From Alphaproteobacteria bacterium (lineage in GTDB: Bacteria; Pseudomonadota; Alphaproteobacteria; RF32; CAG-239): a stretch of 64,000 nt of DNA. Both the position numbers and the translations under genes were made by a program. Of the stretch, positions 31,373 through 63,611 are shown one piece after another. The notes under the pieces are model-generated. The model was not told the DNA's origin, ran no database searches, and was given only the letters and a program-made list of their open reading frames with translations. How positions within the stretch are numbered: the first letter of the stretch is position 1; each line of letters begins with the position of its first letter. The DNA lies in contig JAFVFB010000012.1 in assembly GCA_017475705.1 (NCBI GenBank), positions 60,525 through 124,524 of the forward strand, given 5' to 3'.

Positions 31373-31403
31373 AATTTTTCATCGATTCGCATGTTTAAAG
31401 TGG

Positions 31404-31419
31404 ACAAACATTTGTTTGT
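31404..31419. promoter_or_regulatory. perfect 7-2-7 palindrome ACAAACATTTGTTTGT, candidate operator upstream of the J-like protein gene
   Basis: Read directly from the sequence. It sits just upstream of a -10-like TAATAT and the RBS AAGGAGG of the 31462 gene. Confidence 0.3.
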
Positions 31420-31461
31420 ATGCTAATATAACAGATATAAGACGACTCAAGGAGGCAAAAA

Positions 31462-33594
31462 ATGGCATGGTATGATGAAGATGCCCTCAAAAAAAGAAAA
31501 GATTTATATGAGGTACTAGAGATAGATATCAAAAATTGTGCTCGTGAAGAATATGCTAAAGAGGAAATAGAAAAACAATACCAAAAATTAAAAGTAAAAC
31601 ATAAACAAGACAGTGATGATTTGAAAGAACTTGAAGGTGCCTACAAGATATTAAGTGATGATGTTAAGCGTTCAGTTTATAATCAGATGCATAATATTAA
31701 ATTCGGCTTAGATGCTGTAAATCAAGAATTAAAAAATGATATAAATGATTTTCTTGGTAAGCCTGTTTATGATACAGGCACTCAAAAAAAACAAACAACA
31801 GATTCAAATAGTGCAGAAAATACACCGCCAAAAACTTCTCAACAAGATGAACAGGGTGCGAATAAACAACAAAAAACCCAAAGAGAGAATACCTCTCCCA
31901 ATATTGAAGAGTTCACACAGTCTTTTGACGGAGAATCAAAGGCTTATAAAGATATAGAGCTGGATATCTATGGTAATGTAAAAGAAAAAAAGAAAAAAAG
32001 TCAAAGTGCCGGTGGTAAAATTAAAGCACCGGAGCGCAAGCCTTCTAAAGGTGGCGGTGGTGGTGGTAAAACCATTATGGAAGTTTTCTGGAACGAAATT
32101 ATCGTTGCCGCTTATGAAAAGAGCTTAGATTTAGCTGTAGACTTCACATTAGATTTTGCAGATTGGGTTTTATTTAATGCTTATGACCCGCAAACTGTGC
32201 AAAAAGAAGAAGCCCAAAAGGAAAAGAAAAGTATTTGGGACTATGCGCGTGACGTTTACAAAAAATATAGCAAAGATGCAGACGGTAGCATGGAAATATT
32301 CCAAAAAGCTCATACTGAATTAATGAAAAACATAGAACTGGCAAAAAATGGCATAGCCCCGAAATGGAAAGTTTGGCCGAACGAGAAAGAGCCATCGTTC
32401 TTTAAACAAGTCGTAGAAATTGCTAAAAAAGCAGAGGAAGATCCCCATTCCCCGGAAGCGAAAAAATGGGAACGTTTTTGTTCAATGCCGGAAATTATGG
32501 AAAATTTATATGAAAAAGAGCTGCAATTAAGGAAAATGTCTATTTTCTTAGCTACAGAAGAAACACAGCTAAAAATTGCCGCATATAAACATCCATCAGA
32601 AATAACGTACAGGCTAAAAGAAATGAAAGAATTAAAGTTAGGTCCTGAAAAGAACTATGAACTGTACCAAAAAAATATGCAGCGTTTAATCACGGAATTA
32701 AGAGATAAAATCAAAGAGGATACTTCTGTAAATCGCCAGATTGGTGCCCAATTAGATGAGATGGAAAAATTAGTAAATAACAAGGATATTAAGAAAGAGT
32801 TCAATAATATCACATCTGGATTGTCCGCACACATTAAAGCAATCGGCAACATTACACCTGAGTTTACTCTATCACCCTCCATTCTAAAAAATTTAAAAGA
32901 AATAGATAAAATAGGAGGCTCAACCTCTAATATCGATAAATATAAAAAAGCAGTGAGTGCTAAGGTGATTGAAATTCAAAGCTTAGCTAAGGGTAATCAG
33001 CCTATAGATAAAGAAATAAACAAACAATTAGCAGAGATAGAAAAAGCCCTCAAAAATCCTAAAGCAACAGTAGAAGATTTAGTAAAAATAGTTGGCAAAA
33101 CAACAGCTTCAATGCGTGAAATTACGCCTCTTCGCCAAGAAATAGATGAATCAAGCCAAGCTTATTATGATCGCATGCGCAAAAATATCGATAAAATTAA
33201 AGTTATCTATGGTAGAGACCCGGAACAATGCCGTGAAAACATTAAGCAATATCTTAAAAATATTACCGAGAATATTAAGCAAGCTCAACCAGAAATAGAT
33301 AATTTTGCTCATGCCAGCCATTTAAAACGTGCGTTGATAAATACAGGGCATGCTGCATATAATTCTGTTAAAGGGCTAATGGGTAAAAAAGATCCAATAG
33401 CTGCAGATGCTATTATGGATAGGATGGAACAAAAGGCCTCAGATGGTTTCAAAAAAGCAAATTCTATAATCGATGATTTTGAAATAAATGGACGGAGATT
33501 AAGAGACTATGCTGTTGCGACCGAGACACCAAATCCATTTAAGAATAAGCAAAGCGTATTTAATGCATATAAAGATTATTCAGGGGGCCGTTAA
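31462..33594 (+). CDS. large helical protein with N-terminal degenerate J-like domain (HPD replaced by KQD)
   Basis: 710 aa. Residues ~14-75 align to the DnaJ J-domain (DLYEVLEI...EIEKQYQKLKVKHKQD...AYKILSDDVKRSVYNQ), but the HPD tripeptide is absent. Followed by a Q/K/T-rich linker and a G6 run. Confidence 0.5.
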   Translation: MAWYDEDALKKRKDLYEVLEIDIKNCAREEYAKEEIEKQYQKLKVKHKQDSDDLKELEGAYKILSDDVKRSVYNQMHNIKFGLDAVNQELKNDINDFLGKPVYDTGTQKKQTTDSNSAENTPPKTSQQDEQGANKQQKTQRENTSPNIEEFTQSFDGESKAYKDIELDIYGNVKEKKKKSQSAGGKIKAPERKPSKGGGGGGKTIMEVFWNEIIVAAYEKSLDLAVDFTLDFADWVLFNAYDPQTVQKEEAQKEKKSIWDYARDVYKKYSKDADGSMEIFQKAHTELMKNIELAKNGIAPKWKVWPNEKEPSFFKQVVEIAKKAEEDPHSPEAKKWERFCSMPEIMENLYEKELQLRKMSIFLATEETQLKIAAYKHPSEITYRLKEMKELKLGPEKNYELYQKNMQRLITELRDKIKEDTSVNRQIGAQLDEMEKLVNNKDIKKEFNNITSGLSAHIKAIGNITPEFTLSPSILKNLKEIDKIGGSTSNIDKYKKAVSAKVIEIQSLAKGNQPIDKEINKQLAEIEKALKNPKATVEDLVKIVGKTTASMREITPLRQEIDESSQAYYDRMRKNIDKIKVIYGRDPEQCRENIKQYLKNITENIKQAQPEIDNFAHASHLKRALINTGHAAYNSVKGLMGKKDPIAADAIMDRMEQKASDGFKKANSIIDDFEINGRRLRDYAVATETPNPFKNKQSVFNAYKDYSGGR

Positions 33595-33597
33595 AAT

Positions 33598-34089
33598 ATG
33601 AAAAAACTTAAAAACTTTTTCCGCTTTTGCACAATAAGCACCATAACATTGGTGCTTTTAACCATTGTAGCCAGATTTATTTTTCGCATGATATGGCATT
33701 TTGATATCTTAGATAAACACTCATATCAGCTAATGGCAGAATACTGGAATAGTGGCGGCATCTTTAATTCCTTACAAGATTATAGTCTCGGTTTAATGTT
33801 TCTGTCTTTGCCGATTATCTGGCTCTGGATAAGTTATAAAACATATAGATTTGGTTTGATGAGATTATTATCTCTTCCAATTACAAAGATATATCGGTAT
33901 TTAACGCGGCCGGAAACCTATGATGTGGAACACGTGAAAATAAAAAATCTGCGCGGCAAAGAAAAAAATATAGAGGAACTCATCGCTGAAAAGATAAAAG
34001 AAGAAAACCCTAATAGTGGCGCGGCTCATACCGTAAAAAATTTGCGAGCACAAATTTCTGCAAGAATAGGAGAAAATAAAAAACAATAA
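33598..34089 (+). CDS. small membrane protein, paralog of the N-terminal module of the next gene
   Basis: 163 aa with 2-3 TM. Shares the motif WHFDIL...YWNSGG...SLP.IWLW with the N-terminus of the 34145 ORF. Confidence 0.45.
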   Translation: MKKLKNFFRFCTISTITLVLLTIVARFIFRMIWHFDILDKHSYQLMAEYWNSGGIFNSLQDYSLGLMFLSLPIIWLWISYKTYRFGLMRLLSLPITKIYRYLTRPETYDVEHVKIKNLRGKEKNIEELIAEKIKEENPNSGAAHTVKNLRAQISARIGENKKQ

Positions 34090-34107
34090 TCACTTTTTAA
34101 CCAATCA

Positions 34108-34124
34108 TTATCTACAATAGATAA
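34108..34124. promoter_or_regulatory. perfect 7-3-7 palindrome TTATCTACAATAGATAA, candidate operator upstream of the 34145 gene
   Basis: Read directly from the sequence, in the 55-nt intergenic spacer. Confidence 0.3.
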
Positions 34125-34144
34125 TAAGAAAGTCGGAGAATAAC

Positions 34145-35437
34145 TTGAAACCATTGCTAATTATATTAAAAACTCTGATAATAGGCTATCTCTGGAGCAT
34201 CGTCTTCATAGATGGTATCAGGGTTTTGTTGTTAGTAAATTGGCATTTTGATATTTTTTTAAGAGAGCATTGGCGTTTATTAAGTGATAAATGGAATAGC
34301 GGAGCTCCGATTAGCCGCTCAGAGTTTGCATTTTTTCTAATCCTTGTTAGTTCAATACCATTATGGGTAGCCGGCTGGATAGGCTTGTGTTTAATAAAAT
34401 GGGATAGATTTTTCAAAAAGCTATTTATGTGGCCAGTGTATTTATACAAGAAATTAACATTGAAGAAAAAGCCGCCGATCGTAATAAAGAAAAAATCTGT
34501 CACAGAAGAAACAAAAACAACCTCCAAAGCCAGTGTGGCTAAAAAAGTGCCTGTCAAAAAGGTGGGTTTACCTTCAGCAACCTTAATGCAATCAAATGTT
34601 AACAACAATATGTCATCATCAATGCGGCCAACCTCAAATTATATAGCAGCAAGCAAGAAGAATCCAGAAGCACCAACGACGCATGCTTTATTTAATTTTG
34701 ATGACGATGATTTTGATTTGGATTTTGACTTAGATAAAAAAACACCTGAAAAAGAAGATTATGGCATTCCCTCTGCGCTAAAAGTAGACGAACCACAACC
34801 CAAAGAAAAAGCTAAAGATTCAGCAGATAGTATCATTTCAAATTTTGACACCAATTTCTTAGAGAACAAGCCTAAAAACAATAATCACAAAGACAACCAG
34901 TCAAAGCCGAAATCCACACCGGCTCCAGCAAGAGAATCTCACACGCCGATTTTAGATATCCTAAAACAAAAAGGGTATGACATCATTCCATCTGCAGTTA
35001 TTAAAAATACTACCATTGACTATATCGCTGTGTCCAAGCAACAACTGATCCTATGTCTGGTAGATAAAGAAATTGGCGACTGGTTAGCAGACGAGGAGAA
35101 ATTTAATGATGAAGAGCCACTATGGTTTTCAGAAAGTAGCCATAGAATATCTCCAGTACGCAAAATAGATGTTGCAAGAGATATTTTACGTACTAAGCTT
35201 ATTGCTGCAGATATGAATTTTGAAATTGTTTCTTATGTCATCATACAATCAGGCAACATCATTAACGCTGAAGATATGTTTGAAATATGGAGTGAGATGA
35301 ATATTAATGTAACCAGAATTAATCGCGGCAGCCCTAAAGAAATTCGCTTATTTTCTAAATCATTAGAAAATTGTGAAGATAAAATAGATAAAAACATATT
35401 TGAAAAACTTAAAAAACTAATTCGTAGTTTGGCGTAA
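34145..35437 (+). CDS. membrane-anchored protein: shared 2-TM N-module, K-rich disordered linker, C-terminal NERD/restriction-endonuclease-like domain (tentative)
   Basis: 430 aa. N-terminus NWHFDIFL...KWNSGAP...SIPLWVAGW is paralogous to the preceding ORF. The C-terminal ~180 aa (IDYIAVSKQQLILCLVDKEIGDW) resembles a NERD-type core. Confidence 0.45.
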   Translation: MKPLLIILKTLIIGYLWSIVFIDGIRVLLLVNWHFDIFLREHWRLLSDKWNSGAPISRSEFAFFLILVSSIPLWVAGWIGLCLIKWDRFFKKLFMWPVYLYKKLTLKKKPPIVIKKKSVTEETKTTSKASVAKKVPVKKVGLPSATLMQSNVNNNMSSSMRPTSNYIAASKKNPEAPTTHALFNFDDDDFDLDFDLDKKTPEKEDYGIPSALKVDEPQPKEKAKDSADSIISNFDTNFLENKPKNNNHKDNQSKPKSTPAPARESHTPILDILKQKGYDIIPSAVIKNTTIDYIAVSKQQLILCLVDKEIGDWLADEEKFNDEEPLWFSESSHRISPVRKIDVARDILRTKLIAADMNFEIVSYVIIQSGNIINAEDMFEIWSEMNINVTRINRGSPKEIRLFSKSLENCEDKIDKNIFEKLKKLIRSLA

Positions 35438-37629
35438 TTATTTAATAGAGGAATAAATGGTAAGAGAAAGAGGGAAAGAGTGGGAAGAATATGATAAAGC
35501 CGTCCGGTGGATGGCTACCACGTTTATCATATCTGTCGTGGTCGCAATGGTGCTGGTTTATTTGTCTCAGCCTATAGCCTATCTGGTGCAAAAAGGTGTA
35601 TCCAAAGAAAACGTTGATGTTGCAGTAAGATTTCTGAAAAAATCACTGGCAGATCCCGGATTTTTATATGATAGATATATAAGATGGTTCAAGCAAGCAA
35701 TGCGTTACAGTGGAGCTTTTAAGCCCAGCTTATGGATACCGATATTGCCATTTATAATGTTTCCACTGATATTAATTATTGGAGGCATTAAGTGTCCATA
35801 TAAATTCCAGTCCAATATTCATGGTTCTGCACATATCGCTACTTTAAGAGATATCGAAAAGATGGAACTGCTTGGCTTCGATGGATTTTGCATGGTTGTT
35901 GGCAAGTTCCAAGGTAAGATGTTGAAATTAAAAGAAACATTATCAACACTATGCTGTGCACCTCCTGGTACAGGTAAAACAGTAGGTATTGTTATTCCAA
36001 CAATTTTTAATTCTGAAGGTCTGAGTATCATTGTAAACGACCCAAAACCCGAGTTATGCTACAAAACTACGGGAGCAAGAAATAAAGTTGGTCCGGTATT
36101 TGTTATAAACTGGGGGAAAGAAGATAATCCAGAAACTGGTGAATACTATCCAAGCTGGAACCCACTTTCACCAGGGGCCTTGCCAATGCCTGGTCCAGCG
36201 CGAGATTTGTACGTAGATTCAATGTGTAATACGCTGGTAGAAGATCCCAAGGGTAATGCTGACCCGCACTGGTCAAAAACAGGTCGTAGTGCGTTGTGCG
36301 GTTTCATACATTTTATATCTTCAAAATGCGAGAGAGCTCTTGCTAATGAAAAGTTTATCCAAAAAATTTATGAAGGTTCACTAACAGCAGAAGACAAAGC
36401 AGAATTAATTAATTACTATAGTGACATGAGCATGGGTGGCCTGCGTACAAATGCCGCTCAAGCTATTTCAGATATACAAAATGATAATCTGACTATAGAA
36501 AATTATTTACCGATAGGGACATGGAATCTTCTACCGGAAAAATGGATAAATCATGAACCGTGTATGGCTATGATATTGGAATGGATAACCAGTTCACAAA
36601 TAGAGCAGGCTAATGATATTCGCCGCCGACTGGAAGAAGGTGACCAAATGGCTGCAATGGCAGACCCAATGCGAGATTTGCTAGATGCAGCAGTAGAAGA
36701 GGCGAACAATTATGGTTATTCCCGCCGCTGTGTAACGGAGCTAAGTGCCTTAAGTGCAATGCCGGATAAAGAGCGCGGTTCTGTTTTATCAACAGGTTTA
36801 ACCGGTATTGGTATATTTAAGAACTCAGCCGTCGTTGCCCGAACAAGCTTTTCTGATATCCAATTTAAAGATTTGCGAGGGATGAAAGACCCTGTCACTG
36901 GTGAATGGCGGCCAATTTCCGTATATCTTTCTGTAAATCAAACAGATGCGCAAGCCTTAAATCCTATCAGCGCAACATTCGTAGACTTGATGAGTGCTTA
37001 TTTAATTTCTAATCCACCTAATGCGGTTAATAAATCAGATGGCAAAATGGGGCCATTTCCAGTACTATTTGTGCTCGACGAGTTTCCGCAAATGCCAAAA
37101 TTAAAAGCGGTTATAGACGGTCCTGCTGTTGGTCGTGGTCAAAAGGTTGCATATTTATTGATAGGACAAGATTTAGGGCAAATTTCTGGGAAATACGGTA
37201 AGGATGACCTCGAAACAGTTATCTCAACCACGGCCTGCAAAGTTATCTTATCACAAAACAATGAACAAACCGCACAGCGTTTTTCAAAGATGATTGGTAA
37301 TAAAACAGTACAAACCACATCTTTTTCACGCAGTGAAGGAGGTATAAGCAACAAAGACTTTAATCCATTTTCTAAAAATGTAAGTTACCAATTGCAAGGT
37401 GTCTCAGCCATTAGTACCAATGACCTATTGAGTCTACCGATGCTTAAGCAAGTTGTTTTAATGCAAGGCTACATTGATACACCGATTATGGCAGATTCAC
37501 CTCGTTGGTATCTTGATAAAAAGATGAGAGAGCTGGCATCATTACCTCCATCGCCAAATGTTCCGGACTGGATTGTTGCTCAAAGAACAGATGAAAATGA
37601 AGATATACTGTCCAAACTTGGAATAGATT

Positions 37630-40564
<2,935 letters not shown>

Positions 40565-41287: not shown

Positions 41288-41582
41288 ACTTTACTTTTCT
41301 TATTTTTATTTATAGAGTAAAAGCGGACAGGGTGTTCTTGTCTGGGGTGTGGAAACCTCTTCAAGGAAATAGAAGGAACGTATGATTGTCCGTCTCACAG
41401 TTGTGTTTATTTAAATACATGACTGGAAGGCGACAAAATACGCCGCTTTGAGACTCATATATAACTGCAGATGTATATGCCGTTTAGGCTAATATGTCGC
41501 ACAATCCTTGAATTGTTTCCAACTTCCAGTCGCTTTATAGCGACTTTTTCTTTGACTTAGGAGCTAAAAAAGGAAGTTGATT

Positions 41583-44500
41583 ATGAAGAAACAAAAGAAC
41601 AAGCAAGCTAAAAAAGCATCAAAATTGGCAAAGGCCGAGAACTTAAAGAAAAAACCAGCACAATTTATTACGGTTAAAAATGCCGAGGGTGATCCCGATA
41701 CAACCGCCGAAATCCTCATTCAAAACCAAATCGATTATACGCCGAAAGTATCGGTGATTATTCCAGTTTATAATGTGGAACAATACCTGCGCGAATGCTT
41801 GGATAGTGTTGTTAACCAAACATTGAAAGAGATAGAAATCATCTGCGTGGACGATGGCTCAACCGATTCTTCATTGGAAATCCTCAAAGAATACGCCGCA
41901 AAAGACAAGCGTATGACAGTTATCCGCCAGCAAAATCTCCATGCCGGTGTCGCCCGCAATGCCGGTCTATCACAAGCAAAAGGAGAATACCTCAGCTTCC
42001 TCGATTCCGACGACTTCTTCGAACTCAATATGCTAGAGGAGATTTATGACAAATCTAAGCAAAATGATGACGATATTTTTATTTATAATTATGATTTTTA
42101 TGACAATGACAAGAACTTATACAAAGAATCATATAAATATAATTCAAGGTATTTGCAACAAGAGGGGTTTTCTGCAAAAGATTATCCGAAAAATATCTAT
42201 TTTTTAGCGACACCAAATGCATGGACAAAGCTCTTCAAAAGAACCTTAATTGTAACCAACAGTATTTACTTTGAAAATTGCCCAAGTTGCAACGATATTA
42301 CTTTTGTAGATACGGCTCTTTCTGTTGCGGAAAGGATAAACGTATCAAACAATGTATATGTACATTACAGAATAAATTCAGGTATAAATATATCAAACAA
42401 CAGAGAAGTAAAAGCTTTTTCAATCATTCATGCGATGAAAAAACTAAAGTCAAATCTTGAAAGACTAAAAGTGTATAAAATATTTCGAGATAATTTTGAA
42501 AAGCAGTTAGTTGTTCGTGCAAAATCGGAGATTTTAAAAGCTGATACAGTTTTTAAAACAAAATTCTTAGCAGAATTTAAAAATATTTTTGCTGATGATT
42601 TATACAATGAACTTCTGAAAGAATTAGAGGTAAAAGTCTCAATCATTATTCCAATTTATAATGCTGAAAAATATTTACGTGAATGCTTGGATAGTGTTGT
42701 CAATCAAACTTTAAAAAATATTGAAATTATTTGTGTCAATGATTGTTCTACTGATGGTTCATTAGAAATTATAAAAGAATATGCCAGTAAAGATGGGCGT
42801 ATCATAATTGTCAATAATGATAAAAATACCGGAGCTCCAGGTGCGGTAAAAAATATTGGTATGCAGCATGCCTCAGGTGTATATATTGGTATTGTCGACT
42901 CTGATGATTATATTGATTTAAACTATTTTGAAGAGTTGTATAATGTTGCAGTAAAAAACAATGCTGATATTTCATCTATATCTAGTATTATTAAATTTTC
43001 AGGAAAAAAACAAACACCTATTATACTTGATACAAAAGGGAAAACAATACTTAGCAACCCAAAAGACAAAACCCCACTAATGAGAATATCTAGCACAAAT
43101 TCTGCACGAATATACAGAAGGGAACTACTGGAAAAATACCATCTTAGATGCTATGATAAATTTTCAACAGCAGAAGACAACTTATTTTCGATGGAAGTTA
43201 TGAGTGTGGCTAATAAAATAGCGATGGTGCCAAATATAACTTACCATTATAGGCAACGTGAAGGGAGTGTCACCGGACGAAAGAGAACCAAAGAACATTT
43301 TAATATTTTTGATATTTACCTAATGATAGATAAATTCATATCTAAAACCTTTAGCGGAGAAGAAAAAAACTTATATTTAACAGCTGTTAACGAACGGAAA
43401 AAGTTAGATTTTAAATGGTTTTTAAATTCTTTAGATATCAACTATTTACAAGAATTTAAGGAAAAACTATTAAATGTATTTCCTTTGGTATACAAACACT
43501 TGTTCTTAAATGAAATACCTATAATTTTAGCATCTGATGATAACTATGCGCCATTTATGTACACAACAATGGTATCAATTTTAGAAAATGCAAAAGAAAC
43601 AACTTATTATGACTTTTATCTTATGGTTCCATCTGCATTTTCTAAAAACAACGAAAAAACAATTTTGACCCTAAAAGATAAATACAATTGCGATATTCAA
43701 TTTTTGGATATGAAAGATGCTTTCTCGGACTTGACTATGCAAATATCGCATATTACATCGCCAACTTATTACCGTTTGCTTGCAGGAGATTTATTGCCTA
43801 AAGAATATGATAAATGTATTTATCTGGATGTTGATATCTGTGTTTGCCAAGATTTGAGCGAACTTTATAATATTGACATGGGTAATAATTATATTGCCGG
43901 AGTTGTTGCAGCAGGTTATTATTTTTCTGAAGCGGCAAACTGTAAACGATTAAATCTGCCATCAATGCGAACATATGTTAATGCCGGTGTTTTGCTGATG
44001 AATTTAAAACAAATTCGTCAAGACAGGATGACAGAGAAGTTTGTTGAATTATCTAAGAAAAATTACTCATCTCAAGACCAAGATGTTGTAAATATTGCGT
44101 GTTATGGCAAAATTATAACATTGCCACCTAAATACAATGCGATGACTACGAGGCTACAGCAAAATGACGCGCGTTTAAGAGATTTATATTCAGAAGAAGA
44201 TATTTGGAAAGCAAATAAACATCCATATATTATTCACTATGCAGATAAAAATAAACCATGGAATAGTAGCTTTGTCTATATGGAACAATACTGGTGGAAT
44301 ATTGCAAGAAAAACTCCATATATTGATTTATTTAAAATAGATGCATCATTTTATAAAACTCAGCTAGAGCAATGGTGGTATAGAGCGAAGAAAACTTCAT
44401 TAAACCTAGATAATCCTAAAACTTTTAATGAAAAAATTCAATGGATGAAACTATATGATTCGACACCGCTTAAAACGCGTTTAGCAGATAAATATCTGGT

Positions 44501-46046
44501 GCGTGACTGGGTAAAGGAAAAAATCGGTGAGGAATTTTTGATTCCGCTGTTAGGTGTTTATGATAGGTTTGAAGATATTGATTTTGACAAGCTTCCAAAT
44601 CAGTTTGTCATCAAATGCAATCATGGTAGTGCTTACAATATTATTGTTAAGGATAAATCAAAGCTGGATTTAGTAGATGCAAAAGCAAAACTTGATAAGT
44701 GGATGAATGAAGACTTTGCTTTTAAGTCGGTAGAACTTCATTATCGTGACATAGAACATAAAATCATTATTGAAAAGTATATGGATGATGGAACTGGGGA
44801 TTTAAGAGATTACAAATATACTTGCTTTAATGGAAAACCAGAGTTTATTTGGATAGACAGCGATAGACATACTAAACACAAACGTAATTTATATGACTTA
44901 AACTGGAAACAATTACCATATAAAGTTAATTCGCATTATGACACATTTCCATCACCAGATAAACCAGAACGCTTAGATGAAATGACACAACTTGCTAAGA
45001 TATTAAGCGAAGGATTTTCTTATGTTCGTGTTGATTTCTACATAATAAATGGGAAAATTTATTTCGGAGAAATGACATTTACATCGTCTAGTGGAACTGA
45101 AGATATTGTTCCTGAAAGTTTTGATAGGTATTTAGCTAAAAAGATTAAACTTCCCAAACTCGCCTACAATATTGATACCGGTGAGTATTATAAATTGCCG
45201 AAACCAAGTAAACTCGCCCCATATCTCTTCTTCCCGTATTATCTGTTCAAGGTGGCGCAGATGCGTAAGAAGGTGTTTGCGTTAACAACAGATAAAATAT
45301 TATCTGAATTTACCAAGATGCGGATAGATATTAAAAATAGCGGCACTGCTAAAAATGCTTTGTCTATCACGGCACCAAAAGCAAATATTGATACCCCAGC
45401 TTGGTTTACAAATGCAAGGGGTATCGGACAGATGGTGCAAGGCAATAACCTCAAACAAACCATAAAAATCAAAGCAATTAATGATGGAAAATTAATCTTT
45501 GATTTCCGCGGGCAAGATAAAAGAGATAAAGAAAATCAACGCATTCCGCTATGGTGCGACTATCAGTCTATTAAAATTGATGGCAAAAAGATTAATGATA
45601 AAAAAGAGCAAACATGGCACGATAAACCTTATCACTATGAAATGCCCGTAAAAGATGGGCAAGAGGTTAAAGTTGAAATCGAACAAACCTATCATCGCTA
45701 TATGGAAGGTGATCTTCGCGATACAATATTAGAGCTGTTTCCTAGTGACAAATACATTACCGAAAATATTGATAAATTAACCGCGAAAATCTTTCATTTT
45801 ATAGAATCTAAAGCATCTGCTAAAACATTAAAGCAAAAACTTACAAAAAAAGAGGCGAGCCTAAAGCTATTTAAGGTTTTGCCGATTGCCAGTTTTCGGC
45901 ATAGCGGTGGCAAAAAAGTTTGGAAGATTTTTGGCCTGCCAGTGTTCAAAAAGCGCATGACAAATAATGGAAACACCACAAAATACTACATACTAGGCAT
46001 AAATTTGCTGCAATTAAATAAAAAGACAACCGATGTCTTGCGTTAG
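41583..46046 (+). CDS. multidomain glycosyltransferase: GT2 + GT2 + GT8 + TupA-like ATP-grasp + unknown C-terminal domain
   Basis: About 1487 aa from the ATG 7 nt after the RBS AGGAAG. Two GT-A modules (VIIPVYN..DGSTD..DSDD), a GT8 module (DVDICV, HYADKNKPWN), a TupA-like ATP-grasp module (KCNHGS...) and a ~280 aa C-terminal domain. Confidence 0.8.
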   Translation: MKKQKNKQAKKASKLAKAENLKKKPAQFITVKNAEGDPDTTAEILIQNQIDYTPKVSVIIPVYNVEQYLRECLDSVVNQTLKEIEIICVDDGSTDSSLEILKEYAAKDKRMTVIRQQNLHAGVARNAGLSQAKGEYLSFLDSDDFFELNMLEEIYDKSKQNDDDIFIYNYDFYDNDKNLYKESYKYNSRYLQQEGFSAKDYPKNIYFLATPNAWTKLFKRTLIVTNSIYFENCPSCNDITFVDTALSVAERINVSNNVYVHYRINSGINISNNREVKAFSIIHAMKKLKSNLERLKVYKIFRDNFEKQLVVRAKSEILKADTVFKTKFLAEFKNIFADDLYNELLKELEVKVSIIIPIYNAEKYLRECLDSVVNQTLKNIEIICVNDCSTDGSLEIIKEYASKDGRIIIVNNDKNTGAPGAVKNIGMQHASGVYIGIVDSDDYIDLNYFEELYNVAVKNNADISSISSIIKFSGKKQTPIILDTKGKTILSNPKDKTPLMRISSTNSARIYRRELLEKYHLRCYDKFSTAEDNLFSMEVMSVANKIAMVPNITYHYRQREGSVTGRKRTKEHFNIFDIYLMIDKFISKTFSGEEKNLYLTAVNERKKLDFKWFLNSLDINYLQEFKEKLLNVFPLVYKHLFLNEIPIILASDDNYAPFMYTTMVSILENAKETTYYDFYLMVPSAFSKNNEKTILTLKDKYNCDIQFLDMKDAFSDLTMQISHITSPTYYRLLAGDLLPKEYDKCIYLDVDICVCQDLSELYNIDMGNNYIAGVVAAGYYFSEAANCKRLNLPSMRTYVNAGVLLMNLKQIRQDRMTEKFVELSKKNYSSQDQDVVNIACYGKIITLPPKYNAMTTRLQQNDARLRDLYSEEDIWKANKHPYIIHYADKNKPWNSSFVYMEQYWWNIARKTPYIDLFKIDASFYKTQLEQWWYRAKKTSLNLDNPKTFNEKIQWMKLYDSTPLKTRLADKYLVRDWVKEKIGEEFLIPLLGVYDRFEDIDFDKLPNQFVIKCNHGSAYNIIVKDKSKLDLVDAKAKLDKWMNEDFAFKSVELHYRDIEHKIIIEKYMDDGTGDLRDYKYTCFNGKPEFIWIDSDRHTKHKRNLYDLNWKQLPYKVNSHYDTFPSPDKPERLDEMTQLAKILSEGFSYVRVDFYIINGKIYFGEMTFTSSSGTEDIVPESFDRYLAKKIKLPKLAYNIDTGEYYKLPKPSKLAPYLFFPYYLFKVAQMRKKVFALTTDKILSEFTKMRIDIKNSGTAKNALSITAPKANIDTPAWFTNARGIGQMVQGNNLKQTIKIKAINDGKLIFDFRGQDKRDKENQRIPLWCDYQSIKIDGKKINDKKEQTWHDKPYHYEMPVKDGQEVKVEIEQTYHRYMEGDLRDTILELFPSDKYITENIDKLTAKIFHFIESKASAKTLKQKLTKKEASLKLFKVLPIASFRHSGGKKVWKIFGLPVFKKRMTNNGNTTKYYILGINLLQLNKKTTDVLR

Positions 46047-52098: not shown

Positions 52099-53457
52099 AT
52101 GAAAAAACAAGGTGTTATGGTTGCTCTGGGTCTGATGTTTGCGGCAACCATTTCATATGCAGGTACACTAGAAACAGCATTAGCAAAGGCCTATGATTAC
52201 AATCCCGCACTAAAGGCAGCACGTGCCGGTACACAAGCAACAGATGAGAATGTCGCATTAGCCAAATCTGGCTACCGCCCTACTTTAACAGTAGAAGGAG
52301 GGTATTCAGATACCAAAATAAATACCAATGCACCGGTTAAGCCAATAGATGGGTATAATCGTTCTTTAACAGCGACCATTTCACAACCGGTATTTCGTGG
52401 CTTTAAAACAATGAATTCAATAAAATCAGCCAAAAGTTACGCTAAAGCATCTCAGGCAAACCTAATGGCAATAGAGCAAGATGTCATGTTGCAAGCTGCA
52501 ATTGCATATCTTGATGTATTGCAGGATGAGGCAATAGTCAAATTGCAAAAAAACAATGAAAAATTGCTCAAAAAAGAATTGGAAGAGACAAAAGAACGTT
52601 TCAATGTAGGAGAAGTCACCACAACAGACTTGTCACAAGCTCGTGCAAGCTATGCCTCAGCTCAGTCGCAGCGGATTTCTGCAGAAGGTAATTTAGAAGC
52701 ATCTCGCGCAGTATATAAGCAAATTATCGGCGACAATCCAAAAAATATTAGCATTCCCAAACAAATAGAAAAAATGTTTCCCAAAAGCTTGGAAGAGGCG
52801 ATTAGCTATGCAAAGGAGCATAACTATGCACTGGAGGCCGCACGTCATAATCTAAAAGCAAAAAAATATGATGTAAACACCAGTACCGGTGATTTATTAC
52901 CATCCGTGAATGCATATGCAATGGCAGGAAGGCTAAAGAGCCAAAATTATATGTACCACAAAAATCCCACTAATGACGAGGTGGAATTAGGGGTAAACTT
53001 TTCAATGCCGATATATAATGCAGGGGCTAGCAGAGCCAAAATTCGCCAGAGCAAGTATTATCGCTGGCAAGCTCAAGAAAATCTGCTGAATGCAGAAGAT
53101 GCCTTGTACTCAAATATTACCAGCGCATGGGAGTATCTAAATGCAAACAAAGCTCGCATTAATTCAGTAAGAGCGCAAACCAAAGCATATCAAGTCGCAT
53201 TAAACGGCGTTCGTGAAGAAGAATCCCTTGGCAATCGAACAGTCTTAGATGTTTTAAATCAATATCAATATCTGCTGAATTCAGAAGTAGAAGAAGTAAC
53301 CGTTCGGCATGATTACTATGTTTCTGGTTTGACTTTACTTCAAGCAATGGGCAAACTAACCGCCCGTGACATGAAATTAAAGGTTGATTTATATGATATA
53401 GATGCTAATTATAAGAAGACGAGTGGAAAATGGCTTTCTACCGGAATCAAACAATAA
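52099..53457 (+). CDS. tolC: outer membrane channel TolC family
   Basis: 452 aa. Signal peptide and the two-repeat OEP architecture. Confidence 0.8.
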   Translation: MKKQGVMVALGLMFAATISYAGTLETALAKAYDYNPALKAARAGTQATDENVALAKSGYRPTLTVEGGYSDTKINTNAPVKPIDGYNRSLTATISQPVFRGFKTMNSIKSAKSYAKASQANLMAIEQDVMLQAAIAYLDVLQDEAIVKLQKNNEKLLKKELEETKERFNVGEVTTTDLSQARASYASAQSQRISAEGNLEASRAVYKQIIGDNPKNISIPKQIEKMFPKSLEEAISYAKEHNYALEAARHNLKAKKYDVNTSTGDLLPSVNAYAMAGRLKSQNYMYHKNPTNDEVELGVNFSMPIYNAGASRAKIRQSKYYRWQAQENLLNAEDALYSNITSAWEYLNANKARINSVRAQTKAYQVALNGVREEESLGNRTVLDVLNQYQYLLNSEVEEVTVRHDYYVSGLTLLQAMGKLTARDMKLKVDLYDIDANYKKTSGKWLSTGIKQ

Positions 53458-53468
53458 AGAGAGGTCTT

Positions 53469-53696
53469 ATGGCTCAGGCAGCACAAATAGATGAAGCAAC
53501 AGCTCAAATCCGCCAAAGTATCATTAAGAGCAAAAGCGGAAAGCACTGCATCAGAGATTTTAGTGGGGATATCTTTGAACTAACAGCAGATATGTTAGTA
53601 AAGGATCGCTTATTTAATATTAAGCAGGCAAAAGAACTGTCAGGAATAGCAGAAAATATACTACAAAAATATGCGCGCCTATTGTCAGTAAAATAA
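53469..53696 (+). CDS. small hypothetical protein
   Basis: 75 aa from the internal Met (MAQAAQIDE...). The upstream extension would overlap the tolC 3' end. Weak support. Confidence 0.3.
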   Translation: MAQAAQIDEATAQIRQSIIKSKSGKHCIRDFSGDIFELTADMLVKDRLFNIKQAKELSGIAENILQKYARLLSVK

Positions 53697-53698
53697 AA

Positions 53699-54421
53699 TT
53701 AATCAATAACTTTTGCCACAGTCAAAATATCAACAGATTTTGCACCAAACTTCAAAAGAGTTTTGGTGCATTCTTTTGTCGTAGAACCCGTCGTATAAAC
53801 ATCATCAATCAAAACGATTCTCTTTCCTTTTATCCGTTCAGGGTGAGTAATTGTAAAAGCACCTTTAATATTTTTATGTCTTTGTTTCCCATCACACTGT
53901 GTTTGTGGTAGAGTGTATTTAATTTTCTTGAGAACATCATAGTCGACAATAATATTAGTCATTTTTGCCAGTTCACCAGCTAACACTGCAGATTGATTAT
54001 ATTTACGCTTAAGCAGTCTGGTATAGTGCAATGGCACAGGAACAATCAAATCAGCACCAGCCTCAAAGATATCCTTTCCAGCCAGATAGAGCCACCGCGC
54101 CAGCAATTTTTTATTTTCGATGTGCGCTGCAAATTTAAAGTCAAGCACTAGCCGTTTAGAAAAATTATCATATCGAATGGCTGCACGAGAATAGCGGAAG
54201 TTGGGTCTTTTATTAAGGCAAGAAACACAATATAAATCATCTGCCTCAGTGCTGCCAGTATACAAAGGTCGTCCACAACATTTGCAGTATGGTTTAGAAA
54301 TAAATGTAATATTATTAAAGCAGTCAGCGCACAGGCTGTCATGAGAAGCTAAAACTACACCACAGCACAAACACCGATGTGGCAACAAAAAGTTAATGAG
54401 AGTTCGAAAGATATTTATCAT
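53699..54421 (-). CDS. comF: ComF-family phosphoribosyltransferase
   Basis: 240 aa. N-terminal Cys-pairs (CLCCG...CADC; CKCCGRP...CVSC) and a C-terminal PRTase motif (VLIDDVYTTGST). Confidence 0.7.
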   Translation of the reverse strand: MINIFRTLINFLLPHRCLCCGVVLASHDSLCADCFNNITFISKPYCKCCGRPLYTGSTEADDLYCVSCLNKRPNFRYSRAAIRYDNFSKRLVLDFKFAAHIENKKLLARWLYLAGKDIFEAGADLIVPVPLHYTRLLKRKYNQSAVLAGELAKMTNIIVDYDVLKKIKYTLPQTQCDGKQRHKNIKGAFTITHPERIKGKRIVLIDDVYTTGSTTKECTKTLLKFGAKSVDILTVAKVID

Positions 54422-55284
54422 AACCTTGAGAGTTCTTCTATCAAAGAGAGTAAATTATCGACCACAATGATTCCGGCACTTTCTAACAGTTGCTTTTTTT
54501 CAGCAGCAGTTGTAATTCCTCGGCATATAATATCAGAAGCTAAGCCGACATTATTATCCATATAGGCTTGATCATCAACCATTAAAGCAATAACCGGCTT
54601 TTTTTTCGACATATTTTTATAAGCATGAGCCATTTCTATTTCATAATTACCACCGTAGCCCCCAATGGTCACAATAGCCTTTGTCTGCTTATCATTATTA
54701 AATTCTTTAATGATATCAATAAATCCTGTCCCGATAATAAAGTCATCACCAAGGCCAACAATTGTCGATTCGCCAAAACCGGCACGATTAATTTCTAACA
54801 CAGTTTCATATGTAAGAGTAGAAGAACGTGAAATGATGCCAATATTGCCTGAACGATGGATGTTATCAGGAAATGTTCCCATATAAGCCACCTGCGGTGT
54901 GATAATTCCTGGTGTATTAGGCCCGATAAGCAAAGTTTGAGAATTTTCTAACTCATGACGAATTTCCATCATGTCATTAACGGGAATGCCTGAAGTAATA
55001 GCAACAACAAGTTTAAGTTTTGCTCTTATTGCCTCAATAATAGCGTCTTTAGCAAATTTTGCCGGTACAAAAATAACAGAAGCTGTAGCACCAGTTTTAT
55101 CCTTTGCCTCCTGCACCGTATTAAATAAAGGAATTCCCAAATGTTCCTTTTCTTTTTTATTTGGCACAACACCAGCAACGACATTCGTTCCATATTTAAT
55201 AGCGCGCGGCGTATGGAAAGATGCTTGCGTTCCAGTAAGACCTTGTACAATAACTTTAGTATGTTCGTCAACCAGCACAGCCAT
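54418..55284 (-). CDS. sucD: succinyl-CoA ligase alpha-subunit-like protein lacking the catalytic phospho-histidine
   Basis: 288 aa. Good SucD similarity (VQGLTGTQASFHT, GATASVIFVPA, NIGIISRSSTLTYE). Where GHAGAII is expected the sequence reads VGLASDI. Its stop overlaps the comF start (ATGA). Confidence 0.65.
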   Translation of the reverse strand: MAVLVDEHTKVIVQGLTGTQASFHTPRAIKYGTNVVAGVVPNKKEKEHLGIPLFNTVQEAKDKTGATASVIFVPAKFAKDAIIEAIRAKLKLVVAITSGIPVNDMMEIRHELENSQTLLIGPNTPGIITPQVAYMGTFPDNIHRSGNIGIISRSSTLTYETVLEINRAGFGESTIVGLGDDFIIGTGFIDIIKEFNNDKQTKAIVTIGGYGGNYEIEMAHAYKNMSKKKPVIALMVDDQAYMDNNVGLASDIICRGITTAAEKKQLLESAGIIVVDNLLSLIEELSRL

Positions 55285-56493
55285 CTACAAGTCCTCCTCA
55301 ATAGCCTCTTTGAGCAAGGCTAAACCAATCTGAGTATCATTTGCGATCTTAACAGATAAATTAGATGTTTGTAAGATATTTATCGCTTCTTCTTTATTTG
55401 TCCCCTCAAACCGCGCAACAAGAGGAATATTCAGACCAAGGTCGTTAGCCACACTAATAATTCCATCAGCAATAAGGTTACAGCGAGTAAATCCACCTAA
55501 AATATTGATAAAGATACCATCAACTTTCGGGTTGAGCATAATCAATTTAATACCGGCGGTAATTTTATCTCTGTCAACACCACCTTTAATATTTAAAAAA
55601 CACGCCGTACACAGGCCTTGTTTTTCAGCTTCGCTCATAGTATTGAAAGCCAAACCATTACCATTAGAAATTAAGCCGATTCCGTGGTCCAGTTATTTAT
55701 ATTGAAAGCCGTATTTAGCAGCAATGACTTCTCTTTCATCAATTCCTGCATTATCCGTTAGTTTTAGTATATCCTGATGTCGGTATAGTGCATTTTGGTC
55801 AAAAACAATTTTAGCATCTAAAGCCCAAATTTTTCCATATCTATCAATTCCAAAAGGGTTAATTTCAAGCATTGTTGCATCGTAGTGATAAAATATCTTA
55901 AGAGCTTTGTTAAGAAAACTTTTGAGTGAAAGATGATTACCTCTAAATCCCATAAAATCAATAACTTGAGATAGCTGATTTGCAGATATTTCTTTTTGCA
56001 AGCCCAAATTAAGTTTTAAGATATTTTCTGGGTGTTGTTGTGATAAAATAACAATATCATCATTAGTCCTACCATTAACTGCTGTTAGTAGCAACATAAC
56101 AGAAGCAGATATACGGTCGATAATAAATCCGAGATAATACTTTTTGACGACCTTGATATACTCTTCGACATAAACACGGCTAACAAGGCGTCCTTTTGCT
56201 CCAGTCTGGTTCGTAATAAGCATGTTTTCAAGCATTTTGTCAGCGTTTTCATAAACATCATTTAAAGTTTTAGAAAGCCGAATTCCGCCTTTTCTTCCAG
56301 CCCGTTTATCTAAAAATTTACCGATATTACGCGAACCGGCTAAAATTTGTGCTTTAACCATCCACGGTCCGGTAGATGAAATTTTTTGCGCAGCCTTTTG
56401 TGCCTCTAGAGGAGTATAGGCAACCAAACCTGTGGGGATAGGAATTCCAAAATCCTTAAATATTTTTTTTGCCTGATACTCATAAATATTCAT
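55285..56493 (-). pseudogene. sucC: succinyl-CoA ligase beta-subunit-like gene interrupted by one in-frame TAA
   Basis: Two ORFs (55693-56493 and 55285-55653) are in the same frame. They are separated only by a TAA at 55693-55695 (…YGFQYK*LDHGIGLISNGNG…, compare canonical NYVALDGNIGCMVNGAG). The glycine-rich loop is also altered (AGSRNIGK). Confidence 0.6.
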
Positions 56494-56494
56494 A

Positions 56495-56902
56495 CTAGTT
56501 TCCTATAGATTGAGCAGCATAATACTTAATTTTATCAACCATTGAAAGCATACCGCTGCGTCGATTAGGGGTAATATGTTCCCTTAATCCCATTTTATCA
56601 AAAATTTCTTCAACATCAACATCTAAAATTTCTTGTGCAGGTTTATCTTTAAATATAACTAAAACAATAGCAATAATACCTCGTACTATAATTGCATCAC
56701 TATCTCCTTCAAACCAAATACTGGTATTTTCGAAATGTGGCACAATCCAAACCTGAGATTGGCAACCAGGAACCCTCCATTCATCAGTTTTCTTTTCATC
56801 AGGCAGATGAGGCAACTGGTTACCTAATTCAATAAGATATTTATATCTATCTTCCCAAGAGTCGATAAAAGAAAAATTATCAATTAATTCATCAGCTGTC
56901 AT
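56495..56902 (-). CDS. sufE: cysteine desulfuration protein SufE
   Basis: 135 aa. SufE active-site region VPGCQSQVW. Confidence 0.8.
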   Translation of the reverse strand: MTADELIDNFSFIDSWEDRYKYLIELGNQLPHLPDEKKTDEWRVPGCQSQVWIVPHFENTSIWFEGDSDAIIVRGIIAIVLVIFKDKPAQEILDVDVEEIFDKMGLREHITPNRRSGMLSMVDKIKYYAAQSIGN

Positions 56903-56912
56903 AATCTAACCT

Positions 56913-57350
56913 CTAAATCATTTCAAGCATCATTCGAGCTTCATCACTCAAGCGTTCAATTGACCAAGCTGGCTCCCAAACTACTTCAACTTCAACTCTG
57001 CCCACTCCGTCAACAGCAGCGGCCGCATCAGCAACTTGTTGTGGTAGTATTCCTGCAACAGGACAACCTGGAGCTGTTAAAGACATATCTATGTGTAATT
57101 GCCCATCGTCTTGCTGATTTATTTTATAGATTAGTCCTAAATCATAGATATTTATAGGAATTTCCGGGTCAAAAACCGTTTTAAGTGCCTCAACAATATC
57201 ATACATTTTTGCGGGCTTTTCACCCTTTTTTAGATTTTTGCCAGCATGGGCTTTATATGAGGGTAGCTCACCAACATCATCTATACTCATAGCTGTCAGC
57301 AATTGAGCCTCATTTTCATCGATTTGAAATTGTTGTTCAGTATCAGTCAT
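56913..57350 (-). CDS. Fe-S assembly DUF59/SufT-family protein
   Basis: 145 aa. MIP18/DUF59 pattern (DIVEALKTVFDPEIPINIYDLGLIY...TAPGCP) with an acidic N-terminal extension. Confidence 0.7.
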   Translation of the reverse strand: MTDTEQQFQIDENEAQLLTAMSIDDVGELPSYKAHAGKNLKKGEKPAKMYDIVEALKTVFDPEIPINIYDLGLIYKINQQDDGQLHIDMSLTAPGCPVAGILPQQVADAAAAVDGVGRVEVEVVWEPAWSIERLSDEARMMLEMI

Positions 57351-57363
57351 CGTTTAATATCTT

Positions 57364-58590
57364 TTATCTAAAAAATTCTTTCGCTTTATACAATGCTTTA
57401 ACAAAAACATCAATATCTTCTTTAACAGAATATATACCAAGCGAGGCGCGTGTAAGGGAGGTATAACCCAGTTTACGCACTATCGGTTCAGCGCAAAAAT
57501 GCCCAGTTCGCACGGCAACACCTTCTTTTCCCAATACAAAGGCCAAGTCTTGAGGGTGAATATTTTTTACGGCAAAAGAAAATACCCCACCTTTATTTTG
57601 AGCCGTACCGACAATTTTAAGTTCAGGAATCTGAGCGAGTATTTGAGTAGTATAGTCAATTAAAGCTTGTTCATATTTTTCTATATCTTCAAAATCAAAC
57701 TGCATCAAATAGCGAAGAGCCTCTCCTAAGCCAATAGCTTGTACAATAGCAGGTGTTCCTGCCTCAAACTTAGCAGGAGGCAACGCAAATGATGTTTTAT
57801 CATAATAAACATGTTCAATCATATCGCCGCCAAATTGATAAGGGGGCATATCTTTAAGCAAATCATATTTAGCGTATAGTACACCGATACCTGTCGGCCC
57901 ATAAAGTTTATGACCGGAAAAGGCCAAAAAATCACAATCAAATTCTGTAACATCAATTTTTTTATGAACAGCAAATTGACAAGCATCAATAAGAACTTTT
58001 GCGCCAATAGCATGAGCCGCCTGGCAAATTTTTTTTACAGGGAAAATTGTTCCTAAAACATTAGACATAGCAGTAACAGCAACAATTTTAGTTTTGGAAT
58101 TAAGGGCATTAGCAAAATTTTCCCAATTAAAGCTACCGTCTTCATCTAAATCAAAATATTTTAAGGTAGCACCTGTTCTAAGGCACCACTGCTGCCAAGT
58201 GACAAGATTAGCATGATGCTCTGCAACAGAGAGCAACACTTCATCACCAGGTTTTAGGTTTTGCCAGCCAAATGTAGCTGCGACCAAGTTAATGCCCTCA
58301 GTAGCATTACGAGTAAAAATAACTTCATTTTTATTAGTTGCATGAATAAATTTTGCAACAATTTCCCGTGAACTTTCATAGTTTTCTGTGGCAAGTTCAG
58401 AAAGTCGATAGCTACCACGATGAACATTTGCATATTCATCTTTATAGGCTTTTTCGATTCGTTTCAATACAGTCAAAGGTTTTTGCGCTGATGCTGCCGT
58501 ATCCAAATAGGTATTACGTTTACCATCAATCAATTGCCCCAAACTAGGGAAGTCTTTTCTAATTTCATAAGCATCAAACATTTTAAACAC
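57364..58590 (-). CDS. sufS: cysteine desulfurase SufS
   Basis: 408 aa. PLP lysine motif SGHKLYGPTGIGVLY and class II aminotransferase V features. Confidence 0.9.
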   Translation of the reverse strand: MFKMFDAYEIRKDFPSLGQLIDGKRNTYLDTAASAQKPLTVLKRIEKAYKDEYANVHRGSYRLSELATENYESSREIVAKFIHATNKNEVIFTRNATEGINLVAATFGWQNLKPGDEVLLSVAEHHANLVTWQQWCLRTGATLKYFDLDEDGSFNWENFANALNSKTKIVAVTAMSNVLGTIFPVKKICQAAHAIGAKVLIDACQFAVHKKIDVTEFDCDFLAFSGHKLYGPTGIGVLYAKYDLLKDMPPYQFGGDMIEHVYYDKTSFALPPAKFEAGTPAIVQAIGLGEALRYLMQFDFEDIEKYEQALIDYTTQILAQIPELKIVGTAQNKGGVFSFAVKNIHPQDLAFVLGKEGVAVRTGHFCAEPIVRKLGYTSLTRASLGIYSVKEDIDVFVKALYKAKEFFR

Positions 58591-62474: not shown

Positions 62475-63611
62475 CTATTCAAACCATCTTGTAAATAAAT
62501 GCTTTATGTCATTCCAAGTAGCAAAAATCATTAAAAACAAGATGAAACCAAAACCGAGCTTAAACAAATAATCCTTAAACTTTGCATTAAGCTCACGTTT
62601 TGAAATTATTTCTAACAGATAAATTATTACATGTCCACCATCTAATAAGGGGATTGGGAATAAGTTTATCAAACCCAAGTTAACAGAGAGCAAAGCCATA
62701 AAAGAGAGGAAATTCCAAAAATCTCTATTTTTAGAAATATCCCCTGACATTTCTGCAATGCGAATAATACCGCCGACATCCTCTCCAGAGCGTTCGCCAA
62801 CCAACATCTGTCCAACACCGCGTAAAGTAATGTCTGTCAAATTATAGACTTCTTCAGCTGCTTTAATGAGGGATGGTATAAAGTGAAAATTATCCTTAAC
62901 AATATGAAATTGTTTAGCTTCACCTTTAATTCCAATCATGCGCCGTTTAATAGGCTTTTCATTTTCATCAAAAGCATACTCAATTTCTTCTAACGGTATT
63001 GTTAAAATTTGTGTTGTGCCATTTCTTTCAATTTTGATTTTTACATCATTAATAGAAACGCTAACTTCTTAGGTGATGTCATTCCAATCTTTTATCTCTT
63101 TGCCATTAATTTCAAGAATCTTATCATTCTCTATAACGCCAGCTCTTGCTGCCGGACTGCCTTCAATAACACCAGAAACAACCGGCGGTATATCATAACT
63201 TCCCAAAAAGAAAAATAAACCGAAAAAGACAACAAATGCAAATAAATAGTTAAACAAAGGCCCCGCCACCGCAATGGCAAGTTTTTTATAGGGGGTTTGC
63301 GTAGAAAATAGATGTTTCTTTTCTTCTTCAGAATACTTGCTTAGATCAACTTCTGCAGTAGAGGAAGACTCATCTGCATCACCTAAAAACTGGCAATATC
63401 CCCCCAGCGGAATAGCAGAAATTTTCCAAACGGTTCCTTTCTTATCAGTCGTGCTCCACAAGGTCTTTCCAAATCCTATAGAAAAAGCACTCACTGCAAC
63501 ACCAAGTTTTCGAGCCACAATAAAATGTCCAAACTCATGCACAAAAACAAGTATTCCTAACAAAATAAGAAAGGGAATAACATAATAAACAATATTGAAT
63601 AACCATTCCAT
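62475..63611 (-). pseudogene. rseP: RIP zinc metalloprotease RseP homolog interrupted by one in-frame TAA
   Basis: ORFs 63069-63611 (HEFGHF zinc motif) and 62475-62939 (LDGG motif) are in the same frame. The 44 intervening codons stay open apart from a TAA at 63069-63071. Confidence 0.6.

Follow-up and report, generated by a model that had tools for sequence, protein, structure and literature searches.

Succinyl-CoA synthetase and its histidine-less relatives

Canonical SucCD (EC 6.2.1.4/5), represented by the succinyl-coenzyme A (CoA) synthetase (SCS) of Escherichia coli (PDB 2SCU, 1CQI, and 2NU8), forms succinyl-CoA, NDP, and Pi from succinate, CoA, and NTP. In its mechanism, a histidine residue ferries phosphate between the ATP-grasp and CoA/acyl sites, a distance of approximately 30 Å, and the tips of the power helices, together with adjacent loops, hold the phosphoryl group and the acyl substrate beside this swinging histidine (PMC11494057, PMC10342173). 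A histidine-less acyl-CoA-synthetase-like domain is found in the Pat/PatZ/PatA proteins (type I/II GNATs), where it has a high affinity for acetyl-CoA and governs the activity of the acetyltransferase to which it is joined (PMC8556138). Here, we mainly focus on a pair of SCS-like genes, designated sucC′ and sucD′, in a 64,000-nt stretch of an alphaproteobacterial metagenome-assembled genome (MAG) (GCA_017475705.1, contig JAFVFB010000012.1, positions 60,525 to 124,524; hereafter the window, whose positions are used as coordinates throughout). The two genes lie between sufE and comF on the minus strand, as do all genes of this module, and we regard it as probable that they encode an intact heteromeric descendant of SCS, which can no longer carry out the SCS reaction and may serve the module as a CoA/nucleotide-binding accessory.

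As in canonical SucCD, sucC′ (β-like; 55285-56493, 402 codons) and sucD′ (α-like; 54418-55284, 288 aa, intact) are adjacent in the order β then α, their products have the same Pfam architecture (ATP-grasp_2 plus Ligase_CoA and CoA_binding plus Ligase_CoA, respectively) and the same folds, and the CoA-binding motifs of the α subunit as well as the ATP-grasp residues K46, E99, E197, N199, and D213 of the β subunit are retained. The pair differs from canonical SucCD in the loss of His246α and Glu208α, in family-specific site-I loops, in a 10-aa insertion within the glycine loop of SucC′, in the deletion of the GG129-130 loop of the β subunit throughout the SucC′ family, and in its genomic context, which is sufE/comF instead of mdh-sucCDAB. 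The best NCBIfam matches are SucC for SucC′ (NF001913, score 344.8, cut-off 370) and SucD for SucD′ (NF004230, score 329.3, cut-off 336), both under the curated cut-offs, and a canonical sucCD is absent from the 64-kb window. With the Pat/PatZ/PatA domain, the pair shares the superfamily, the loss of the catalytic histidine, and the retention of the fold. However, Pat contains a single-chain ACD-type domain fused to a GNAT domain, whereas SucC′D′ consists of two separate subunits, and a Pfam search of SucC′, SucD′, and the module revealed no GNAT domain. By analogy, the Pat/PatZ domain may be regarded as the closest functional precedent for SucC′D′. No description of the SucC′D′ family was found in full-text searches of the literature.

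Loss of the phosphohistidine and remodeling of SucD′

Motifs were compared by HMMER alignment to E. coli SCS, with canonical positions numbered as in the mature E. coli α subunit. The loop that reads MGHAGAII in E. coli reads VGLASDII in SucD′, placing Leu248 (codon 54541-54543) at the position of His246α within the ex-phosphohistidine loop GLASDIIC (residues 247-254; 54523-54546), and IGEIGG is replaced by IGGYGG, placing Gly209 (codon 54658-54660) at the position of the catalytic Glu208α. The first-pass annotation, made from the sequence of the window, had described a SucD without the phosphohistidine (VGLASDI), and the HMMER alignment agrees; the profile alignment that it proposed as a check upheld the motif losses and recovered no histidine.

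These replacements are characteristic of a whole family. Among the 120 best homologues of SucD′ (63-100% identity, nearly all 288 aa), none possesses the phosphohistidine, and the motifs G[LIV]A[SP][DE]I[IL]C[RH]G and IGG[IY]GGNYE are shared. Eighty further loci from rumen and human gut, down to 46% identity, came from scanning metagenome contigs for patterns, and GHAG was found in none of the 86 SucD′ sequences derived from loci. Overall, the phosphohistidine is missing from all of the approximately 200 SucD-like relatives (46-100% identity), in which the old histidine position is occupied by L, Y, I, F, or V; the deep clade is marked by the motif GYA[GSA]DIIT, with tyrosine in place of histidine. 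As a control, the histidine was kept in all 78 canonical SucD sequences obtained from a genome scan (77 with GHAGA and one with GHTGA).

To define the family signature, canonical positions at least 90% invariant were compared in 60-63 representatives sharing less than 80% identity. Alternative residues of the α subunit that are fixed or nearly fixed include G20A, C123T, G154S, and G179D, and further canonical invariants are replaced variably, namely E208 by G, Q, or K (also A), H246 by L, Y, I, or F, and A249 by D or E. Glutamate was never seen at position 208α in the SucC′D′ family, and an acidic residue occupies α249 in 58 of 60 representatives. The CoA-binding motifs of the α subunit retained here are GxTGxQ, P40, VP72-73, and PNxPG. 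The cysteine that follows the loop (DIICRG) was considered as a persulfide or metal site and rejected at the family level because the deep clade has threonine at this position (DIITHG).

Apart from this family, ten other full-length SucD-like cluster representatives (P0291, P0301, P0310, P0327, P0329, P0335, P0347, P0362, P0380, and P0388) contain neither the GHAGA histidine nor the SucD′ signature; SucD-like proteins may have lost the histidine on more than one occasion.

Glycine loop and ligand-site residues of SucC′

In SucC′, the alignment of the glycine-rich loop runs from AGSR through an insertion of 10 residues, NIGKFLDKRA (residues 56-65; 56299-56328, by HMMER gap placement), to GRKGGIR, compared with AGGR-GKAGGVK in the canonical protein. 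The reading AGSRNIGK given in the first-pass annotation is correct as a string of residues, but the loop is interrupted by an insertion, not replaced. The insertion is present in every one of the 120 best homologues of SucC′ (62-100% identity, 399-411 aa) and is conserved family-wide as G[KH]F..[DK][KR].AG. In the same representatives used for the α subunit, N285C, D288N, G290K, D308N, and I322F are fixed or nearly fixed in the β subunit, and A266 is replaced variably by D, S, or N. N285C is invariant in the family. With regard to the two glutamates that stabilize the phosphohistidine at sites II and I, Glu197β is retained, whereas Glu208α is lost.

Selection, phylogeny, and fold

Selection was estimated as the ratio of nonsynonymous to synonymous substitution rates (dN/dS) by the Nei-Gojobori method (NG86), using pairs of loci with unsaturated dS (0.07-1.06). 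The median dN/dS is 0.025 for sucC′ and 0.026 for sucD′, and the neighboring genes show higher values (0.083 for sufE and 0.085 for comF). The six closest pairs are mutually non-independent, and seven further pairs agree with them. Between genomes, SucC′ and SucD′ show amino-acid identities similar to those of SufS, SufE, and ComF. In neighbor-joining trees, a rough analysis, SucC′ and SucD′ each group in one clade, and alphaproteobacterial sequences are among the canonical ones that lie nearest to them on average. The search of a representative library, in which the SucC′D′ family is collapsed into clusters at 50% identity, yielded only two deep members of the family (P0241 and P0242) and unrelated histidine-less lineages, and a scan of a genome collection with query-specific patterns found only two close relatives. 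The claim that three independent lesions had struck the catalytic elements of the pair does not hold at this level, given that the histidine loss and the glycine-loop change are characters of a family evolving at a dN/dS of about 0.025 and the third, an in-frame TAA in sucC′, is private to one assembly (see below).

Both proteins are predicted to fold as SCS subunits. The AlphaFold2 (AF2) model of SucD′ has a predicted local distance difference test (pLDDT) score of 80 and a TM-score of 0.86 to the α subunit of E. coli SCS, with pLDDT below 50 at residues 239-244, just before the ex-phosphohistidine loop. The model of SucC′ (pLDDT 75) matches SCS β chains, its ATP-grasp domain reaching TM-scores of 0.81-0.88 to 6NO0-6NO6, with low pLDDT at residues 51-59, around the insertion. 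Identity to SCS in the structural alignments is 48-49% for the α subunit and 32-35% for the β subunit. These models are of single chains and thus represent the folds, not the α/β interface.

A conserved sufE-sucC′-sucD′-comF module

The first gene of the module, sufE (56495-56902; Pfam SufE, E = 3.5e-45), retains the cysteine motif PGCQSQVW, and the last, comF/gntX (53699-54421), encodes a protein with a double zinc ribbon and a phosphoribosyltransferase-type domain (Pfam DZR_2 and Pribosyltran; NCBIfam GntX/ComF). Upstream of sufE lie a sufT-like gene (FeS_assembly_P/DUF59; 56913-57350; Pfam PF01883 on the orthologue) and sufS, coding for a class-V aminotransferase/cysteine desulfurase (57364-58590; Pfam Aminotran_5 on the orthologue). 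The placement of the pair between sufE and comF, as first described, agrees with the gene order in the window.

The junctions within the module are very tight. A single nucleotide separates the sufE stop from the sucC′ start, the TAG of sucC′ directly abuts the ATG of sucD′ (0 nt), with GAGGAGGA just 5′ of the junction, and the TGA of sucD′ and the ATG of comF share a 4-nt overlap, ATGA, which bears out the earlier statement that the sucD′ stop overlaps the comF start and that the two genes are tightly coupled. The conserved C-terminal EEDL of SucC′ is encoded by GAGGAGGACTTG, directly 5′ of the TAG-ATG junction (55285-55300). The Shine-Dalgarno sequence of sucD′ thus lies inside the conserved SucC′ C-terminus, and the conservation of EEDL may in part act at the RNA level. 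In a scan for promoters and terminators, counts were at chance level, with no terminator-like site on the minus strand within the operon.

Across genomes, sufE is found immediately 5′ of sucC′ in all 58 testable loci, and comF immediately 3′ of sucD′ in 68 of 70, the exceptions being L121, in which 438 nt separate sucD′ from comF, and L091, where comF is missing. In close relatives, the whole neighborhood from frr to glgP (approximately 20 kb) is syntenic, and such extended synteny says little about the module itself. In the deep clade, the surrounding synteny is gone, yet sufE, sucC′, sucD′, and comF remain contiguous, with gaps of 0-50 nt. The other suf genes are more mobile: sufS-sufT-sufE is contiguous in 15 loci and split by inserted genes in 14, sufS and/or sufT are located on the opposite strand or downstream in 8 and are out of reach in a further 8, and sufBCD lies upstream in L170 and downstream, in convergent orientation, in L104. 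Since sufS, sufT, and sufBCD move while the adjacency of sufE and comF to the pair holds, the conserved, translationally coupled unit is sufE-sucC′-sucD′-comF, which was found in low-GC Alphaproteobacteria from rumen and human gut. The idea that SucC′D′ substitutes for SufBCD was rejected because L104 and L170 both carry sufB, sufC, and sufD beside the module.

That genes of the ComF family accompany genes of iron-sulfur (Fe-S) biogenesis is independently hinted at in E. coli K-12 (L174; NC_000913.3, 3544882-3546199), where yhgH (gntX, ComF family) is located directly upstream of nfuA, which codes for an Fe-S cluster carrier, in the same orientation. The likeness is one of genomic context alone; the E. 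coli locus differs in having no SCS-like pair and in having NfuA, instead of SufE, as the Fe-S partner.

The in-frame TAA of sucC′

In the deposited sequence, codon 267 of sucC′ (55693-55695) is TAA, and NCBI annotates the N-terminal fragment as a hypothetical protein of 266 aa (MBR2273825.1). An exact look-up of SucD′ retrieved four other assemblies of the same organism, originating from at least three samples. In each of the four, the gene upstream of sucD′ is called as a 402-aa product, and sucC′ (1209 nt) differs from the window by one base, GAA (Glu) instead of TAA. The corresponding alignment column is at least 95% glutamate among the 120 closest SucC′ homologues. The stop noted in the first-pass annotation is therefore present in this record but private to it.

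Comparison of 42.5 kb of the window with the European Nucleotide Archive (ENA) version of the same contig (150,319 bp; 150,320 bp in the NCBI MAG) revealed five substitutions private to the window (positions 27235, 51446, 52163, 55695, and 63071), all of which alter a protein and two of which create a TAA. The second such TAA replaces K181 of rseP (63069-63071, minus strand) and splits this site-2 protease gene into two open reading frames (ORFs), 63069-63611 and 62475-62939; in L001 and L002, the codon is AAA (Lys) and rseP is one gene of 378 aa. Assembly L002 has a private stop of its own in sufS, at window position 58263. Considering that the dN/dS of these genes (0.03-0.08) implies mostly synonymous true divergence, the private differences resemble consensus noise or rare deleterious variants.

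Stop-codon reassignment or read-through was rejected as an explanation because TAA is the commonest terminator in the window, ending 22 of the 38 genes in the curated set and 30 of the 42 long ORFs; in these two sets, TAG accounts for 11-15 stops and TGA for one. The only TGA in the window is the stop of sucD′, directly followed by TAA, and relatives such as L005, L098, and L104 do use TGA; the scarcity of TGA in the window may reflect a lineage bias or chance. In all likelihood, the TAA of sucC′ is either an error in the consensus or a deleterious variant of low frequency, and it does not belong to the normal make-up of this gene.

Proposed function and alternative explanations

Given the absence of the histidine, the loss of Glu208α, and the rebuilding of the site-I pocket, the pair cannot be an SCS. 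As judged by homology, several of the family-specific changes would map to the two tips of the power helices and to neighboring loops. In the mechanism that we propose, SucC′D′ would keep an ATP/ADP site in the ATP-grasp domain and a CoA/acyl-CoA site in the α Rossmann domain, ligand binding being suggested by the retained motifs, the loops of the site-I phosphate/acyl pocket having been exchanged for a different, equally conserved set of residues. Ser154α and Asp/Ser/Asn266β, as helix N-cap residues, would fill the former phosphate site. D179 and D/E249 of the α subunit and Lys290 of the β subunit could pin the formerly swinging loop, which would now be static, and the side chain at the old histidine position, being hydrophobic or aromatic, would contribute to packing rather than catalysis. 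The complex would then act as a ligand-binding accessory or regulator of SufE and/or ComF. By analogy with known histidine-less domains, such a partner of SufE/ComF, with two ligand sites and a static loop, is the leading candidate mechanism, although less likely than not, and we advance it tentatively. The further step, in which an enzyme of the tricarboxylic acid (TCA) cycle has been exapted in anaerobic gut and rumen Alphaproteobacteria into a dedicated, phosphohistidine-free ATP/CoA-binding partner of SufE and ComF that links CoA, acyl-CoA, or energy status to sulfur mobilization or Fe-S delivery, is more speculative and should be viewed as unlikely in this full form. The mitochondrial NFS1-ISD11 desulfurase depends on the acylated acyl carrier protein (acyl-ACP), which provides a parallel to the proposed coupling between CoA and SufE.

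Several observations weigh against an accessory that binds both ligands and cooperates with its neighbors. Elements of the nucleotide site are altered, with β E107 changed to K or other residues, GG129-130 deleted, and the glycine loop interrupted. Divergence within the SucD′ family exceeds that of canonical SucD across phyla, which could mean partly relaxed constraint. The lineage L091 lacks comF downstream of sucD′, the sharing of an operon with sufE and comF may stem from joint expression rather than from a physical or functional partnership, and the TAA may be a real allele in a subpopulation.

Of the two readings offered in the first-pass annotation, a decaying duplicate or a repurposed pseudo-enzyme, the latter fits the strong purifying selection, the fixed alternative residues, and the conserved module. 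Decay into a pseudogene pair through three inactivating lesions would agree with the interruption of sucC′ and its annotation as a mere 266-aa fragment in this record, with scores slightly under the NCBIfam SucC and SucD cut-offs, and with the description of rumen Alphaproteobacteria MAGs as metabolically reduced (PMC8992543). However, the stop is missing from the four other assemblies, approximately 200 homologues are full-length with conserved lengths, the dN/dS of about 0.025, a measure that the annotation itself had proposed, is below that of sufE and comF, and the substitutions themselves are invariant across the SucC′D′ family. Decay is thus refuted at the family level, and we consider it extremely improbable for this pair. 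A strain in which the TAA is a genuine allele, with a truncated or split sucC′ or with read-through, would explain why the base stands in the deposited MAG and why the stop is placed immediately ahead of the strand that opens the C-terminal CoA-ligase domain. This is improbable in view of the GAA found in four assemblies from at least three samples, the use of TAA as the main stop codon here, and the occurrence in the same record of a private TAA in rseP among private differences that all alter proteins; moreover, the next in-frame start found (TTG, 55653) would drop the conserved GIGxIxNG strand.

The remaining alternatives accept a functional pair. It might be an active acyl-CoA synthetase with another phosphoryl carrier, such as the tyrosine of the deep clade or the Asp/Glu at +3, or with another acid substrate, as suggested by the retained ATP-grasp Mg/nucleotide residues, Glu197β, and CoA-binding motifs, by the nearly constant acidic residue at α249, and by the deep-clade sequence GYAGDII, only two changes away from GHAGAII. 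Nevertheless, the histidine position is occupied by L, I, V, or F in approximately half of the representatives, including the protein of the window, so that no nucleophile is conserved there; D and E interchange at α249, Glu208α is lost throughout, and substitution of His246α abolishes SCS activity. Together with the new side chains on both power-helix tips (α G154S and β A266D/S/N), these features make a catalytically active synthetase very unlikely, the tips being the elements that bind the phosphoryl group (PMC11494057). Alternatively, SucC′D′ could be a conserved pseudo-SCS with no functional relation to Suf or ComF. It might, for instance, sense CoA/acyl-CoA or adenylates on behalf of central metabolism, a common transcript being its only tie to the neighboring genes. 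The frequent combination of functions in bacterial operons, the synteny of the 20-kb neighborhood among close relatives, and the absence of comF from L091 are all compatible with this scenario, which is nonetheless rather doubtful, given that the deep clade keeps sufE-sucC′-sucD′-comF contiguous (gaps of 0-50 nt) while sufS, sufT, and sufBCD move.

Other features of the window

Next to the module, a small ORF on the plus strand (53430-53696, 88 aa, no Pfam match) is convergent with comF and lies between it and the TolC-like gene; at the same place, a gene of 75-79 aa is called in L001-L004, L085-L087, and L089. Farther away, the region 30245-38448 contains a TraG/VirD4-like type IV secretion coupling protein (35457-37679) among five sizeable ORFs that gave no Pfam match (375, 710, 163, 430, and 272 aa), and it could be what is left of a conjugative or secretion element. 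An ORF of 1489 aa (41577-46046) contains several glycosyltransferase domains and ATPgrasp_TupA, based on Pfam matches of its orthologue in L001 and L175.

Implications for annotation and biology

Before gene decay is read into an in-frame stop of a single MAG assembly, sibling assemblies should be consulted. In public annotation, SucC′ and SucD′ are named succinate--CoA ligase subunits beta and alpha, and attempts to reconstruct the metabolism of these abundant Alphaproteobacteria of gut and rumen will consequently assign them an SCS/TCA step of which the encoded proteins are incapable. The SucC′D′ family, which is widespread in gut metagenomes, offers a case of a core metabolic enzyme turned to another use under tighter constraint than its neighbors, and its placement between sufE and comF provides a testable link among CoA/nucleotide sensing, sulfur trafficking, and the little-understood ComF family. 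If the proposed partnership with SufE/ComF is true, it would open a first way into the function of ComF proteins in bacteria that are not competent.

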